This document shows, piece after piece, positions 3,358 to 63,132 of a stretch of DNA of 64,000 nt. The notes under the pieces are model-generated. The model had not been told where the DNA came from, did no database searches, and worked only from the letters and a program-made list of their open reading frames with translations. The DNA lies in the IMG/VR virus record IMGVR_UViG_3300025012_000055, positions 27,381-91,380 of that record. One strand, 5' to 3'. The stretch is from a virus. Position numbers and translations under genes: made by a program. The first letter of the stretch is position 1. Every line of letters starts with the position of its first letter.

Positions 3358-3658
3358 GATATTAAGAGAAGGTTGGGGTAAATTTACAAGATTTCATTGT
3401 AAAGTGGGGTATGTTGATAGATGGATAGGAGATTGCATTAATCATCCAAATAATGAAACAAAACATCAATGGCAATTAAATTCTTTTGATACATATTATC
3501 GGTTAAATGGTGGTGAGTGGGTTAATGATAGGGAAATTGGAAGAGATATTTATATTAATTTACAACAATTTAGGGAAGAATTTTCAGCTGATGAAATTTG
3601 GGATATAACATTAAAAGAAACATTAAAAAATGATAAATAATTTAAACCTTATAAAATT

Positions 3659-4252
3659 ATGGAAAAATCACATGAAATAATATATATTGATGATTATGCA
3701 ATAATTGTCAGTGATGACGATATTGAAATTGGAGATAGGAGATTGGATTTATTTAACATGACAATAGGTTTTTGCATTAATGAAAAAGACAAAACTTTTC
3801 TAAATAAACGCCTTAAAGGTGTTGTTGTATTTAAGAAAATTATTGCATCAACTAAATTAACTTGGATACCTGAAACTCCATTGTTTAGTTTACCTAATGA
3901 AATTAATAAATTAATCAGAGAATATTTTAATGGAAGCAATTCAATCAATTTAGATATTTATGAAAATAAAGATTTTGCTGAATTTATTTACAAAGCAGTA
4001 CAAAAAAAGTATTCAGAAGAAGATTTGAGAGATGCCATTATGTATGGTTATCAAACTTGCATGAGAGGAGGAAATATTGATAAAGATAAATATGTTGAAT
4101 CTCTCAATAAATCTAAAAAACCTATAAGTTGTATAGTTGAATATGAAACTATTTGGGCAAGAAATACAGATAGGAATGTACCCACAGAAGCAGATTTTGA
4201 TTATAAACCAAAAATAGAAAATGGTAAACTTGTAATAACGAAATTTAATTGA
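3659..4252 (+). CDS. Hypothetical protein
   Basis: 197-aa ORF within a co-directional early cluster. Confidence 0.6.
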   Translation: MEKSHEIIYIDDYAIIVSDDDIEIGDRRLDLFNMTIGFCINEKDKTFLNKRLKGVVVFKKIIASTKLTWIPETPLFSLPNEINKLIREYFNGSNSINLDIYENKDFAEFIYKAVQKKYSEEDLRDAIMYGYQTCMRGGNIDKDKYVESLNKSKKPISCIVEYETIWARNTDRNVPTEADFDYKPKIENGKLVITKFN

Positions 4253-26796: not shown

Positions 26797-26870
26797 TTGA
26801 TAAATAATTTGGATATGTCATTTATTTTACTTACCTTTGTATTTTAAAATTAAAATTAACTATTATTTTT

Positions 26871-27071
26871 ATGGATACAAATATAAAAGAACAAATTGAT
26901 AATATGGATTATGAATCAATGTTAAGATTATGGAGATTTAGTCCTGCTGGCCATTCATTATTTCAAGGAGAATCTGGTGAATATTTCAGTAAAAATATGA
27001 AAGAAAAACGTGATAAATTACCAAATGAAGAACATCCAATCATATCAAAAAGAATAGGTTGGGAAAAATAA
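26871..27071 (+). CDS. Small conserved hypothetical protein
   Basis: IDNMDYESMLRLWRFSP.G..FQGE.G.YF..SKRIGW; has its own promoter at 26808. Confidence 0.7.
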   Translation: MDTNIKEQIDNMDYESMLRLWRFSPAGHSLFQGESGEYFSKNMKEKRDKLPNEEHPIISKRIGWEK

Positions 27072-27138
27072 TTCATTTTATACTTGTTTATTTTAATTAT
27101 TTTACTTACTTTTGTATCTTGAAAGTATTTATAATAAA

Positions 27139-27210
27139 ATGAAAAACATAAATTTACATAATCTCCCACAGCTACCCAGTAATAAACATTGGGGTGGAAA
27201 ACTTATGTAA
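27139..27210 (+). CDS. Attenuator leader peptide 1 (MKNINLHNLPQLPSNKHWGGKLM)
   Basis: Codon run CTC CCA CAG CTA CCC matches downstream tRNAs Leu(TAG), Pro(TGG), Gln(TTG); lies between promoter and terminator. Confidence 0.8.
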   Translation: MKNINLHNLPQLPSNKHWGGKLM

Positions 27211-27237
27211 AAAAATTAAAAAAATACAATAGATTAT

Positions 27238-27277
27238 AAACCCTGATGTTCAATAAAAAAGTCATCAGGGTTTTTTT
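27238..27277 (+). terminator. Intrinsic terminator/attenuator before tRNA cluster 1
   Basis: aaaccctgatg..catcagggttttttt; the 5' arm can instead pair with 27185-27195. Confidence 0.85.
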
Positions 27278-27296
27278 ATTGATAAAAAATTAAAAT

Positions 27297-27368
27297 ATGG
27301 TGTTAGTTCAGAGGCAGAACGCTACATTTGGGATGTAGAGGTCGAGATATCATAATTCTCACACCATA
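27297..27368 (+). tRNA. tRNA-Pro(TGG)
   Basis: Cloverleaf, ctaca-tttggga-tgtag; atypical T loop. Confidence 0.85.
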
Positions 27369-27385
27369 CAAAAAAATTAAAAAAT

Positions 27386-27459
27386 ATTCCAGTATCCCAA
27401 TTGGTAGAGGATATAGTATTAGAAACTATAAAGTGAGAGTTCGAATCTCTCCTGGAGTA
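27386..27459 (+). tRNA. tRNA-Leu(TAG), short variable loop
   Basis: atagt-attagaa-actat; gagag-ttcgaat-ctctc. Confidence 0.85.
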
Positions 27460-27460
27460 C

Positions 27461-27534
27461 TACCGGATCTTCTAATTTTGGCAGGAAAGCACCCTTTGAA
27501 GGTGATAATATAGGTTAGATCCCTACTCTGGTAA
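27461..27534 (+). tRNA. tRNA-Gln(TTG)
   Basis: taccgga/tctggta acceptor; cacc-ctttgaa-ggtg. Confidence 0.75.
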
Positions 27535-27638
27535 CTACAAAAATTAAAAAAATATTAGATAATACTTGTTTATTTCAATTATTTTACTTACCTTTGTATT
27601 CTAAATATCTGAATTAATAACTTAAAAACCTAAAAAAA

Positions 27639-27845
27639 ATGAAAGATAAACCACAAAAGCCGAAATTGAATACTACTGTTGTTGGCGGTAGTTTTTATTG
27701 GGTTAGACCATTTCAAGGAGATGAATTTGAACCTGCAAAGGCTAGAGATAGATATGAGAATGGAGAGCTATATTTCTGCTTTACAAACGGTAGTGTGTTG
27801 GAAGTAGAGCGCGCTTGGGAGGTTGAGCCATTAAATTTCAGCTAA
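27639..27845 (+). CDS. Small cassette-like hypothetical protein
   Basis: Follows the promoter at 27565; stop codon within GCTAAC. Confidence 0.65.
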   Translation: MKDKPQKPKLNTTVVGGSFYWVRPFQGDEFEPAKARDRYENGELYFCFTNGSVLEVERAWEVEPLNFS

Positions 27846-27900
27846 CGGTTTTGGGATTGCTGTCAGGTTTCTTACGGATTAACAACTAAAATATAATTAT

Positions 27901-28140
27901 ATGAACGAAGAATTAAGAGTGATATCACAAAGCTATTGCGGAATGACACCGAAAGATAAAGGATGCAAAACTTGGGCTGAGATGCAACAGAAAATGGCAG
28001 ATGAATTGGAATGTGTAGTAAAAAATTATATTGTCCAAGCAAATGTTAGCGGACACTTGTGCCAATGTGGAAATCCGATTGCCAGAACGGAGTGCGATGA
28101 TTGTTTAGACAATAGAATTAGATGCAAGTTAGAAAATTAG
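27901..28140 (+). CDS. Small cassette-like Cys-rich protein
   Basis: CQCG..CDDC; flanked by GTTAGCGGA/TCCGCTAAC. Confidence 0.65.
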   Translation: MNEELRVISQSYCGMTPKDKGCKTWAEMQQKMADELECVVKNYIVQANVSGHLCQCGNPIARTECDDCLDNRIRCKLEN

Positions 28141-28222
28141 GTACAATTTCCGCTAACGCATCGGAGATTTATGAAGGATTTTTTACGACTTAAACTACAA
28201 ATTTAAAAATATAAAAAACACA

Positions 28223-28465
28223 ATGACAAAAGAAGAATTGATTACAAAGCAACAACTGGAAATAGAGCAGTATCAAATTGCAATAGAAGAAAACAAAAAA
28301 CTGCTGAAAAAGATAAAACTAAATTTCATTGCGATAGGGATGCCGTTAAATGATAACCTATTGCAATTTGATAAGAAGCAGATAAAATGGTGCTTGGAAA
28401 CATTAGAAATGATTGAACAAATTAACTGTACTGTGCTTGACTATGAGGGTGTGTGGGCGGGTTAA
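28223..28465 (+). CDS. Small hypothetical protein
   Basis: IG.PLNDN.LQF motif; A-rich initiation region. Confidence 0.65.
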   Translation: MTKEELITKQQLEIEQYQIAIEENKKLLKKIKLNFIAIGMPLNDNLLQFDKKQIKWCLETLEMIEQINCTVLDYEGVWAG

Positions 28466-28558
28466 AAAGTTTGCGTATAAGTAGGGGATTGTCGCAATAT
28501 TATTGATTTTTTAAAATATTTTACTTATATTTGTACTTTGAAACTATTTATTAAGAAA

Positions 28559-28639
28559 ATGAAAAACTGGTTAAACATATCAATTCATAGTAATAGTCGT
28601 AATATTATACGACCTGGAAGGGGTATGTTTATACAATAA
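28559..28639 (+). CDS. Attenuator leader peptide 2 (MKNWLNISIHSNSRNIIRPGRGMFIQ)
   Basis: 13 of codons 3-18 are decodable by the seven downstream tRNAs, and all seven are represented. Confidence 0.85.
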   Translation: MKNWLNISIHSNSRNIIRPGRGMFIQ

Positions 28640-28658
28640 TCATTTTTAAAAGATATAT

Positions 28659-28695
28659 AAAAAACCCCTTGGATTAAGTTTTTAAGGGGTTTTTT
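28659..28695 (+). terminator. Intrinsic terminator/attenuator before tRNA cluster 2
   Basis: aaaaaacccctt..aaggggtttttt; the 5' arm is also complementary to aaggggt 28618-28624. Confidence 0.85.
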
Positions 28696-28700
28696 AATTT

Positions 28701-28774
28701 TGGTCTGTAACTCAGAAGTTTAGAGTGCCAAGCCGTTAACTTGGAAGCCGGGATGGCAGAATTCCCCAGACCAG
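28701..28774 (+). tRNA. tRNA-Asn(GTT)
   Basis: ccaag-ccgttaa-cttgg; tggtctg/cagacca acceptor; atypical T loop. Confidence 0.8.
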
Positions 28775-28790
28775 CTGGAAATATAAAAAA

Positions 28791-28874
28791 GGAAAAGGAC
28801 TGGCATGGACGAAGAGATAGTCTTGAAAACTATTGTGTGTAAAAACATCGTGAGTTCGATTCTCACCTTTTCCG
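28791..28874 (+). tRNA. tRNA-Ser(TGA)
   Basis: atagt-cttgaaa-actat, long variable arm, G73. Confidence 0.85.
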
Positions 28875-28888
28875 CTTTTTTAAAAAAC

Positions 28889-28959
28889 AGGTTCTTGGTG
28901 TAATGGCAGCATCTGAAATTCCAAACTTCAGGGTATGGGTTCGAATCCTATAAAACTTG
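28889..28959 (+). tRNA. tRNA-Trp(CCA)
   Basis: tgaaa-ttccaaa-cttca; atggg-ttcgaat-cctat; G73. Confidence 0.8.
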
Positions 28960-28960
28960 C

Positions 28961-29046
28961 GGAAAATAAACCAATCAGGGTATTGGGCCTATTTGCTAAA
29001 TAGTGCGTTCTGTAAAAAGAATGTGTTTCAAATACTCTGTCCTCCG
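28961..29046 (+). tRNA. tRNA-Ser(GCT), degenerate
   Basis: ctat-ttgctaa-atag, long variable arm; mismatches in acceptor and T stems. Confidence 0.6.
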
Positions 29047-29057
29047 CAAAATTATAT

Positions 29058-29130
29058 TGACCAGTAGCTCAATTGGTGGAGCAACATTCTGATGAAATGA
29101 AGGTCGAAGGTTCAAATCCTTCCTGGTCAA
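29058..29130 (+). tRNA. tRNA-Ile(GAT)
   Basis: catt-ctgatga-aatg; tgaccag/ctggtca. Confidence 0.88.
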
Positions 29131-29139
29131 CAAAAAACT

Positions 29140-29212
29140 ATTTTCTTAGTTTAACTGGATAAAATATTTGGCTACGAACCAAAAGATGAGAGTTCGAATC
29201 TTTCAGAAAATA
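29140..29212 (+). tRNA. tRNA-Arg(ACG)
   Basis: tttgg-ctacgaa-ccaaa; attttct/agaaaat. Confidence 0.85.
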
Positions 29213-29227
29213 CATTATAATTAATAT

Positions 29228-29302
29228 GGTGCTATTGTTGTAAATTGGTGAGCATAGAAAACTGTGAATTTTCAGGTAAAGGTTCAATTCCTTTATGGCA
29301 CC
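29228..29302 (+). tRNA. tRNA-His(GTG)
   Basis: gaaaa-ctgtgaa-ttttc; G-1:C73. Confidence 0.88.
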
Positions 29303-29310
29303 CAATAATC

Positions 29311-30003
29311 TTAATTTAATAATTCAAAAACTTCTTTTATTCCTTCACTAGCTTTTTTATTAATATAAGTAATTTCCATTCCAATTTTACTTAAACTTTT
29401 AACTGGGTTTGGATCAATAAAAAATACTTCACAAGATAATTTTATATAAGTTAACATTTGAAAACAATAATGGATAAATAAAGAAGTTCCAATTATTATT
29501 AAATAATCACATTTTTCAATTGTTTTATATGATTCTTCAATATTACAAGGATATTCCCCAAACCAAACAACATGAGGTCTTAATTGTGAGCCATTTTCAC
29601 ATTTATCACCCAACTTTATATCATTATAACCACAATCATATATTAAATCTTCATCTGATGAGCTTTGAGATTTTGTAAGTTCCCCATGAATGTGAATAAC
29701 ATTTGAAGAGCCACCCCTTTCATGTAAATTATCAACATTTTGAGTTATCACGGTAACATCAAAATTATTTTCAAGTTCTGCAATTAATTTATGCGCCAGA
29801 TTTGGTTTTACATTTTCCAGTTGCCTTCTTCTTTCGTTATAAAAATCTAAAACTTTTTGTTTATCTTTGTGCCATGCACTTATTGTTGCAACATCATCTA
29901 TTTTATGGTTTAACCATAAACCATTTTTTCCTGTCCTGAATGTTGGGATGCCAGATTCCTCACTTACGCCCGCACCAGTAAAAACAACTATTTTCTTTTT
30001 CAT
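29311..30003 (-). CDS. cobB: Sir2/CobB NAD-dependent deacylase
   Basis: TGAGVSEESGIPTFR, TQNVDNLHE, HGE, LRPHVVWFGE, IGTS. Confidence 0.93.
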   Translation of the reverse strand: MKKKIVVFTGAGVSEESGIPTFRTGKNGLWLNHKIDDVATISAWHKDKQKVLDFYNERRRQLENVKPNLAHKLIAELENNFDVTVITQNVDNLHERGGSSNVIHIHGELTKSQSSSDEDLIYDCGYNDIKLGDKCENGSQLRPHVVWFGEYPCNIEESYKTIEKCDYLIIIGTSLFIHYCFQMLTYIKLSCEVFFIDPNPVKSLSKIGMEITYINKKASEGIKEVFELLN

Positions 30004-61507: not shown

Positions 61508-61579
61508 TTAAATAATTTTTTTAATTAATCTATTGACTTTTTAGAATATTTTATTTATCTTTGTATTTATAATAATATA

Positions 61580-61660
61580 ATGAAACAGATAACGACATAT
61601 TTTGGTGGAAATGGTGATGGCACAACTGATGCGATAACCATAATGGCCAGATTATGTTAA
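61580..61660 (+). CDS. Attenuator leader peptide 3 (MKQITTYFGGNGDGTTDAITIMARLC)
   Basis: TTT GGT GGA..GGT GAT GGC..GAT GCG match downstream tRNAs Phe, Gly, Asp, Ala. Confidence 0.8.
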   Translation: MKQITTYFGGNGDGTTDAITIMARLC

Positions 61661-61681
61661 AAATATAAATAACAACTATAT

Positions 61682-61716
61682 AAAAACCCTGGCTAATAAA
61701 AAGTCAGGGTTTTTTT
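61682..61716 (+). terminator. Intrinsic terminator/attenuator before tRNA cluster 3
   Basis: aaaaaccctggct..agtcagggttttttt; the 5' arm is complementary to tggccag 61644-61650. Confidence 0.85.
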
Positions 61717-61731
61717 GTTTATATGATAAAT

Positions 61732-61808
61732 GGTGATACAGCATATTGGTGCATGTTGCTTCCCTGTCACGGAAGAGATTGTCGGTTCAAATCCGTCTAT
61801 CACCGCCA
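61732..61808 (+). tRNA. tRNA-Asp(GTC)
   Basis: cttcc-ctgtcac-ggaag; G73 and encoded CCA. Confidence 0.88.
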
Positions 61809-61809
61809 A

Positions 61810-61882
61810 GGAACTTTGGTGTAGGTGGTCTGCACAACTGTTTGAAGCACAGTGGGTCTTTGTTCGATTCAAAGAGGTTCCA
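61810..61882 (+). tRNA. tRNA-Phe(GAA)
   Basis: actgt-ttgaagc-acagt; ggaactt/aggttcc. Confidence 0.85.
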
Positions 61883-61902
61883 CAAGGTTATTCATTTTTA
61901 CA

Positions 61903-63132
61903 TCAAACATTACATTTGAGTTCAAATGATTTTACAAATTCAACTTTGTATGGGTTAAACCCTAACCCTATATTCCTTATGTTACTTATGAATTTTTCAC
62001 ATTCAGGAATTACTTTTGATTTTAACATTATTCCAATTGCACCATTAACATCAGCATTTATTGTTTTGCCAATACTACTTAAAAATAAACCACGCTTTAT
62101 TCTTTTGCCAAGATAAATTGCTTGTTTTTGTATCGGTTCAAATGCCAAATGGTCGCATTTACTGGTATAACTTTCTTCCTGCTCAACAAGTTTTATGCTG
62201 TTGAGTTCTAACTTATATTTTATTTTATCTATAAGTTTGGCATGAGGGATAGAAACAAAATTCTGGTTATTACGGCTACCAATATTTATTTTCTTCTTCC
62301 AATGTTCATTTTTACCGATAACAACTGTCCCAATATTATACTTTAAACAGTATTTAAGAATGAAATCGCCTACCTGGTGCATTGCATTTTCTATCTTGTT
62401 ATTCCTGTCAAAAGTTAATTTATTTATTCTGTTTGACGTCCCTTTATTACCAACATAACTCATTAACTTGGCTCGCTTTTTATTAAAATACGCATTGATG
62501 GATTTTAATCCTCTACCGTTGATAATGAAAGGATTATTACCGACATTATCTATTGCTGTGATAAGATTGTTTAATCCCAAATCAATGCTTAATACATTTT
62601 CTTCTTTTATTTTTTCATGTTTTACCTCCTTTTTTTCATAGACAACTTCTATTACAAAACAAGTTGCTTGTGGAATTATTCTCACTTGTGATATATTATC
62701 TACTTTTGTTTTTAATGGTTGAATATTTGCTTGTTTTGGAAAATGTATAAGTCCCCCTTTTAAATTAACTTGCTGATTAGTGAAAATGCAAATAGAATAT
62801 CCAGCCTTATCTTTGTATTTTGGTTGCTTAGGGTTTCCTTTAAATTTGCTTGGGCATTTTTTATATTCTTTTAATGCTTTGAAATATGACTTCCAGTTCT
62901 TAAAAAGTAATTTTATTATTTGCTGCGATGTTTGTGCCGGCAATGCCCTATAATCTTCCTGGTTAAATTCAGCAAGCAATTTAGATAATTCATATTCCTC
63001 AAATTTCTGTATATTACCAAAAAATGCTTGCCGTTTGTGATAATTACAAAAATTATACAATCTGGCTGATTTAAAACAAATATCCTCTATTGCTTTATCG
63101 TTTATCCTAATATGTCGCTCTACGAGTTGCAT
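61903..63132 (-). mobile_element. tnpB: TnpB (MQLVE-type) inserted within tRNA cluster 3
   Basis: SIDLG, INGRGLKSIN, EESYTSKC, GKRIKRGLF, NADVNGA. Confidence 0.92.

Follow-up and report, generated by a model that had tools for sequence, protein, structure and literature searches.

The described systems closest to the locus studied here are the leader-peptide attenuators of enterobacteria. In trpL, hisL, pheL, leuL and thrL a short ORF with many regulatory codons comes after the promoter, the leader RNA can form mutually exclusive 1:2, 2:3 and 3:4 helices, and the regulated genes, which encode biosynthetic enzymes, begin right behind an intrinsic terminator; slow decoding of the leader leads to read-through. 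In the trp leader the terminator is stabler than the antiterminator and read-through is a kinetic outcome. The nearest known attenuators to our case are the multivalent leaders of ilvGMEDA and thr. The pheM leader of the E. coli pheST operon (phenylalanyl-tRNA synthetase) is a leader-peptide attenuator with cognate codons that stands before a gene of the translation apparatus. T-box riboswitches of Firmicutes also sense the state of specific tRNAs and choose between terminator and antiterminator 5' of translation-related genes. In them no ribosome takes part: the tRNA itself contacts the RNA by way of Stem I, the specifier loop and the T-box sequence.

Arrays of tRNA genes whose products add to the host's tRNAs or stand in for them are known from T4-like phages, T5-like phages, mycobacteriophages and giant phages, and the reason why phages carry them has been debated for decades. 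It has been suggested that they compensate for codon usage, make up for host tRNAs that have been degraded, or help to escape tRNA-cleaving defences (PMC10264068, PMC11555353, PMC11464382). Control of phage tRNA expression receives little attention in these papers, and a search by term of PMC10264068 and of PMC12482277 found no mention of a leader, attenuation or a terminator. We found no description of a codon-matched leader controlling tRNA genes in the searchable literature, outside of which most subscription journals lie, and an earlier report is possible. Here we describe a phage tRNA operon in which the order of elements, the competing helices and, as we propose, the logic of the enterobacterial leaders recur.

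Results

Source of the DNA and the promoter motif

The window, that is the whole 64-kb stretch analysed, is the last part of a 91-kb linear IMG/VR virus record (IMGVR_UViG_3300025012_000055) and has a G+C content of 25.8%. Since the 91-kb record is linear and its completeness is estimated at 28%, its source is a giant uncultured phage. Neighbouring genes in the phage include those of a Sir2-family protein and of an SbcC-like ATPase; the Sir2-family gene is convergent and lies directly after tRNA-His, the last gene of the unit. No close relative of the phage was found among viral contigs and GenBank phages. The 80-aa protein encoded just 5' of the unit (28223-28465) had no relatives in viral contigs, an exact 35-nt pattern from tRNA-Arg gave no match, and GenBank phages had only tRNA-sized pieces and the Sir2 gene in common with positions 26800-30000.

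A 17-nt promoter-like motif, TTTTAYTTANNTTTGTA, occurs in 16 copies in the 64-kb window against 0.74 expected, and three of these copies stand 5' of the three leaders considered below. The copy of the main unit is at 28519-28535 on the plus strand, ends 24 nt 5' of the leader ATG and has a TAnnTTTG box inside. Examples of further sites are 2946, 8981, 12138, 26825 and 27582; nearly all copies are on the same strand as the ORFs downstream. We read the motif as a phage promoter because its copies precede ORFs. The TAnnTTTG box, which we take to be the Bacteroidota -7 promoter element, indicates that the host probably belongs to the Bacteroidota.

Leader ORF and its codon match

Between the end of the promoter motif (28535) and the start of the terminator (28658) there is a short ORF with its own start and stop codons. 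It occupies 28559-28639 on the plus strand, has 26 codons, begins with ATG AAA and ends with TAA at 28637-28639. Its regulatory run, codons 3-18 (28565-28612), reads AAC TGG TTA AAC ATA TCA ATT CAT AGT AAT AGT CGT AAT ATT ATA CGA, and thus holds Asn four times, Ser AGT twice, Ile ATT twice, Arg as CGT and CGA, and Trp, His and Ser TCA once each. A preliminary description, made from the letters of the DNA, had counted 13 of these 16 codons as decodable by the downstream tRNA cluster, with every tRNA represented. Both statements were confirmed under strict wobble for the anticodons GUU, CCA, UGA, GCU, GAU, GUG and ACG. The codons of the leader that the cluster does not read are three ATA, one TTA and one AGG.

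The same description had made the claim dependent on a comparison with genome codon usage and with random 16-codon windows, and it survives both. In the 87 long ORFs of the 91-kb record the seven tRNAs can read 21.7% of codons, which gives a binomial P(≥13/16) of 6.6e-7. None of 24,605 sliding 16-codon windows of the long ORFs reaches 13 matches (the maximum is 12), and none represents all seven tRNAs. Among 775 short ATG ORFs on both strands a single one reaches 13, the leader itself, with the runner-up at 11. The codons CGT, CGA and CGC together make up 0.37% of all codons, and the leader, which lies ahead of a tRNA-Arg(ACG) gene, has two of them. The codon match of the leader is not explained by chance.

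Terminator and competing helices

An intrinsic terminator is found at 28658-28696 on the plus strand, with a 16-bp stem, a 7-nt loop and a T6 run at 28690-28695; it starts 19 nt past the leader stop codon, and its 5' and 3' arms correspond to segments 3 and 4 of the classical nomenclature. From the T run to tRNA-Asn there are 5 nt, with no space for a promoter between them, and therefore the tRNAs appear to be transcribable only through the terminator. Among canonical terminators on the plus strand of the 64-kb window, the three at the head of tRNA clusters are also the three cleanest.

Segment 1 (28572-28581), the 5' arm of the anti-antiterminator helix, lies within the codon run, and segment 2 occupies 28618-28631. 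Both pairings put forward in the preliminary description were recovered: positions 28622-28631 of segment 2 pair with segment 1 over 10 bp including one G-U, and AAGGGGT at 28618-28624 is complementary to ACCCCTT at 28664-28670 in the 5' arm of the terminator. The minimum free energy (MFE) structure given by RNAfold holds the 1:2 helix, with an inner 6-bp hairpin (28596-28613) at the tip of its stem-loop, together with the terminator; it has an energy of -47 kcal/mol and a z-score of -6.4, and none of 200 shuffled sequences folded as well. The antiterminator duplex 28618-28624/28664-28670 was calculated at -12.2 kcal/mol.

With a ribosome footprint masked so that codons 4-12 occupied the A site, and with the transcript ending at 28680, the predicted fold contained the antiterminator, made of segment 2 and the 5' arm of the terminator; constrained folding gave the terminator when the ribosome was placed at the stop codon or left out. 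The masked fold permits RNA pairing across the ribosome and so gives no guidance on stalls at codons 14-18. In the full-length RNA of the masked-ribosome folds the terminator was always thermodynamically favoured: it has 16 bp and about -15 to -20 kcal/mol, against 7 bp and -12 kcal/mol for the antiterminator, and is by far the stabler of the two. These energies predict that read-through has to come about by kinetic trapping. A ribosome stalled at codons 16-18 would hide part of segment 2, so the 13 codons are perhaps unequally effective.

A further, outer helix (28555-28562/28640-28647) joins the start-codon region to the stretch past the stop codon, encloses the whole ORF and is followed by a T5 run. 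As a speculation, it may be a pause hairpin or may limit translation to one round by the first ribosome.

Searches with Rfam at E ≤ 10 over 27200-29400 gave no T-box match. Of the leader families only His_leader appeared, on the terminator hairpin, with 21.5 bits where the cut-off is 49. No known cis-regulatory family was recognized in this region, the sub-threshold matches (rli40, PyrR, the trpB motif and His_leader) all falling on the terminator hairpin.

We also considered the hairpin as mainly a bidirectional terminator serving convergent Sir2 and TnpB-like genes (minus strand -10.8 and -11.7 kcal/mol). This role was rejected because sister unit 1 (see below) has no convergent gene and because it would leave the ORF and its codon match unexplained.

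The tRNA genes

The cluster lies on the plus strand and begins with tRNA-Asn(GUU) at 28701-28774, found by Rfam only (39.1 bits). Its T loop is unusual, 9 nt instead of the canonical 7 nt, and the gene was missed by ARAGORN at default settings. Then follow tRNA-Ser(UGA) at 28791-28875 (33.9 bits in Rfam; ARAGORN at a 90% threshold), tRNA-Trp(CCA) at 28889-28960, a doubtful tRNA-Ser(GCU) at 28961-29047, tRNA-Ile(GAU) at 29058-29131, tRNA-Arg(ACG) at 29140-29213 and tRNA-His(GUG) at 29229-29303; the Trp, Ile, Arg and His genes were found by both ARAGORN and Rfam. At standard thresholds the Asn and Ser(UGA) genes were each recognized by one of the two tools. The doubtful gene was reported by ARAGORN at an 80% threshold only and is absent from the Rfam results at E ≤ 10; its acceptor stem shows two A.C mismatches, its T arm is weak, and it looks degenerate. 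The preliminary description had one leader covering seven tRNAs including both Ser isoacceptors; this holds for six sound tRNA genes, while the second Ser isoacceptor stays in doubt.

Sister units in the window

The same design, a promoter motif followed by an ATG AAA leader, a terminator and tRNAs, is found three times in the window, each time with its own codon set. Sister unit 1 (27100-27534, plus strand) consists of the promoter motif, a leader at 27139-27210, a terminator at 27238-27273 and genes for tRNA-Pro(UGG), Leu(UAG) and Gln(UUG); its leader holds a Leu-Pro-Gln-Leu-Pro run. Sister unit 3 (61549-61883, plus strand) consists of the promoter motif, a leader at 61581-61661, a terminator at 61683-61713, tRNA-Asp and tRNA-Phe. 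Its leader has Phe, Asp, Gly and Ala codons, and the cluster resumes with tRNA-Gly and tRNA-Ala beyond an inserted TnpB-like gene. This gene (61903-63132, minus strand; 409 aa) has Pfam OrfB_IS605 and Cas12f1-like TNB domains and splits the cluster between tRNA-Phe and tRNA-Gly/Ala. The leader of unit 3 also has five Thr codons, and no tRNA-Thr occurs before the contig end.

Units in related giant phages

Giant phages linked to the window through the Sir2 gene were taken as relatives. Of 28 related loci around the gene itself, none has an adjoining tRNA cluster. Whole records were therefore searched for tRNAs and 20 tRNA-rich regions were taken. Units were defined by a fixed rule blind to codon content, as a fold-based hairpin with a T run at most 35 nt 5' of a tRNA, and the leader as the longest ATG ORF ending at most 70 nt before the hairpin and T run. 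The rule gave 19 units in the window and the relatives, of which 15 are independent. In the relatives' loci 18 of 42 non-redundant cluster starts carry such a unit, and most of those without it are single tRNAs.

Over the 15 units the match of each leader to its own tRNA set, as a summed fraction of codons, is 5.39 for operons defined by the rule only and 5.74 when one operon is extended by hand. Shuffling the pairs of leaders and clusters gives 2.84-2.99 ± 0.37, and none of 200,000 permutations reached the observed value. At the amino-acid level the own-set match is 6.57 versus 3.85 ± 0.41 for shuffled pairs. The match is specific to the reading frame (39% in frame versus 17% and 16% in the other two) and to position, with 46% of codons matched 5' of the antiterminator segment and 16% from that segment onwards (Fisher p = 2.7e-9). 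Complementarity between the 3' part of a leader and the 5' arm of a terminator is stronger within a unit (mean -10.9 kcal/mol) than for non-cognate pairs (-7.3 kcal/mol; permutation p ≤ 1e-5). Codon choice also follows the isoacceptor: 57 of 91 informative codons are read by the tRNA of the cluster against 40.9 expected (z = 3.7), and among Arg codons 8 of 9 match the cluster isoacceptor against 3.1 expected. Beyond the matched residues the leader peptides show no conservation across units.

Individual units illustrate these numbers. A Gln/Asp/Pro cluster is preceded by a leader with the run Pro-Gln-Pro-Gln-Asp-Gln-Asp-Pro; a Pro/Pro/Arg/Cys cluster has a leader with Cys-Pro-Arg-Pro, and a series of Cys, Val and Leu tRNAs has a Val/Leu/Cys run in its leader.

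Two further observations in the relatives are worth recording. On the reverse strand of G015 (L040) a lone tRNA-Gln at 4214 stands behind a leader in which six of seven successive codons are Gln, with the terminator 57 nt 5' of the tRNA; judged by its sequence, this is a monovalent, classical-looking form of the same design. In G013 (L036, 2734-2806, minus strand) ARAGORN places a tRNA with anticodon CUA, amber-reading and labelled Pyl, inside a tRNA cluster, which may point to recoding or suppression of stop codons.

The sequence comparison for the leader at 28559-28639 itself rests on two distant orthologues, in G012 (L047), which is complete at 360 kb, and in G003 (L030). Both keep the Ile/Ser/His/Asn/Trp/Arg content, segment 2 as GGTATGTT and a complementary segment 1, and all three leaders fold to the same 1:2 hairpin and terminator. 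The G012 cluster consists of His, His, Trp, Ser, four Asn, Ser, Arg and Ile tRNAs, and the amino-acid set of its leader is that of the leader at 28559-28639. Antiterminator and terminator of G012 have changed together, with GTCAAG/CTTGAC instead of GGGG/CCCC. In G003 codons for Gln, Tyr, Pro, Cys and Phe are added to the leader, and the matching tRNAs to the cluster. On the reverse strand of G012, at about 1244-1616, an ORF of ~57 aa separates the leader terminator from the first tRNA-His; the attenuator of this phage would thus gate a protein gene besides tRNAs.

Similar units in cultured phages

Two cultured Bacteroidota phages seem to carry similar units, which we read by eye and from single folds. 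In Cellulophaga phage phi19:1 (KC821607; L049, 3482-3707) a leader with the run His-Ile-Gln-Arg-Leu-Pro-Gln-Pro is followed by a terminator and by tRNA-Pro, Gln, His, Leu and Arg; the tRNA-Pro(UGG) at 3633-3707 is unannotated in the GenBank record. In Tenacibaculum phage Gundel_1 (MT732474; L050, 1032-1640) there is a leader of 20 codons, many of them for Tyr, Ser, Cys, Phe and Trp, and then a terminator. The tRNAs after it are a sub-threshold one (27.8 bits in Rfam; Tyr-like by eye), Phe, Ser(UGA), one without assigned identity and Ser(GCU). Since these units belong to cultured phage-host pairs, the attenuator idea should be testable at the bench.

Discussion

The anatomy of the unit, the statistical specificity of its leader and the recurrence of the design in other phages are direct observations. 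They lead us to interpret the unit as a ribosome-mediated, leader-peptide transcription attenuator of a phage tRNA operon that exerts negative feedback on decoding capacity, a reading that we hold to be likely correct. It agrees with the preliminary description, and each sequence-level prediction that was tested was borne out, in the three units of the window and in the 15 independent units of related phages: the own-set codon match, its frame specificity, the position of the matched codons, the complementarity of leader and terminator, and the lack of room for a promoter before the tRNAs. From this pattern we infer translation of the leader, stalling of the ribosome, kinetic competition between the helices and the physiological trigger.

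In the mechanism that we propose, transcription would start at the phage promoter, ~18 nt 5' of the leader ATG, and a ribosome would load on the nascent leader, the outcome being set by its speed through the codon run. If the Asn, Ser, Trp, Ile, Arg and His codons are decoded fast, the ribosome would reach the stop codon and cover segment 2; the terminator hairpin would then form and RNA polymerase would stop at the T run, just 5 nt short of the tRNA genes. If any such codon is decoded slowly, charged tRNA being scarce, the ribosome would stall over segment 1, leaving segment 2 free to pair with the emerging 5' arm of the terminator. With the antiterminator formed there would be no terminator, and the polymerase would continue into the seven tRNA genes. 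Without translation segments 1 and 2 would pair and the terminator would form. The phage thus probably makes the tRNAs of the cluster only when the matching codons are read slowly, and the net effect would be negative feedback by which it replenishes exactly the tRNA species limiting for decoding. The preliminary description spoke of a multi-input OR gate. Such a gate, with seven inputs, is plausible on the model outlined here, and its inputs would probably be unequal in effect.

The anatomy alone, with its helices, folds and complementarity, fits equally well a unit with the same attenuator hardware whose signal is amino-acid supply or the stage of infection instead of tRNA abundance. Stalling would then report uncharged tRNA in host starvation or the late collapse of host translation, and the unit would be mainly a timer. 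It is established knowledge from trp and his attenuation that a stalled ribosome cannot distinguish a missing tRNA from an uncharged one. The codons, however, track the isoacceptors of the cluster and not just its amino acids (z = 3.7; Arg 8/9 versus 3.1), and feedback on such a signal would be futile, because extra tRNA would not relieve an amino-acid shortage; we consider this version unlikely. A different possibility is that the leader is an ordinary small phage gene followed by a constitutive leaky terminator, with tRNAs made by unregulated read-through and a codon match that means nothing for regulation. Small ORFs do abound in phage genomes, the promoter motif drives ordinary genes too, and only 18 of the relatives' 42 cluster starts carry a unit of this kind. 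Yet an ordinary gene would leave unexplained the own-set match over 15 units (0 of 200,000 permutations) and its frame specificity, the position of the match 5' of segment 2 and the unit-specific complementarity of leader and terminator arm, and the peptides are unconserved apart from the matched residues, which makes this explanation highly improbable.

It could further be imagined that no translation is involved and that codon-like triplets bind the anticodons of uncharged tRNAs, like a T-box specifier, and so stabilise the antiterminator. That T-box leaders couple tRNA status to the choice of terminator or antiterminator in a similar way is established knowledge. For the present leader, however, no T-box or other Rfam family was found at E ≤ 10 save sub-threshold matches to the terminator hairpin; the matched triplets share a single frame that opens with ATG AAA and closes with a stop codon, and up to ten different specifiers per 16-codon stretch would be unprecedented in T-box architecture. 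We give such an RNA-only sensor next to no chance.

If the attenuator reading is true, the phage would measure decoding capacity and supply tRNAs on demand, in a direct homeostatic loop on tRNA supply, and a mechanism known until now from genes of amino-acid biosynthesis would be put to tRNA supply. It would also imply, for the presumed Bacteroidota hosts, a coupling of transcription and translation tight enough to permit attenuation. In practical terms, the leader would provide a sequence-only read-out of the tRNAs intended for a cluster, which would help to spot degenerate or missed tRNAs and split clusters. A more tentative idea, which we regard as possible but rather doubtful, is that the attenuators act as inducible counter-defence sensors: a host anticodon nuclease or another tRNA-depleting defence that cuts a particular host tRNA, or depletion of tRNAs through the shut-off of the host by the phage, might stall the leader ribosome on the matching codon and so switch on the tRNA block that makes good the loss. 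Each tRNA block would then be a sense-and-repair circuit for the tRNA pool, and feedback by way of the ribosome on the transcription of tRNA genes would, in general, be a widespread and overlooked regulatory principle.

The mechanism that we propose is a known one, classical leader-peptide attenuation. What sets the unit apart is the target, tRNA genes, together with the phage origin, the number of tRNA species polled and the choice of codons at the isoacceptor level. In comparison with T-box riboswitches, the phage unit is without Stem I, specifier loop and T-box sequence, and its ORF carries the specificity. The pheM leader differs in that it is cellular, regulates a synthetase and senses a single amino acid. 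With the enterobacterial leaders the phage unit has neither sequence nor Rfam membership in common; one phage leader would poll up to seven tRNA species, and more in relatives, with codons that track isoacceptors. Enterobacterial leaders control biosynthetic enzymes, whereas here the regulated products are the tRNA genes, and therefore the proposed loop would close directly on decoding capacity.
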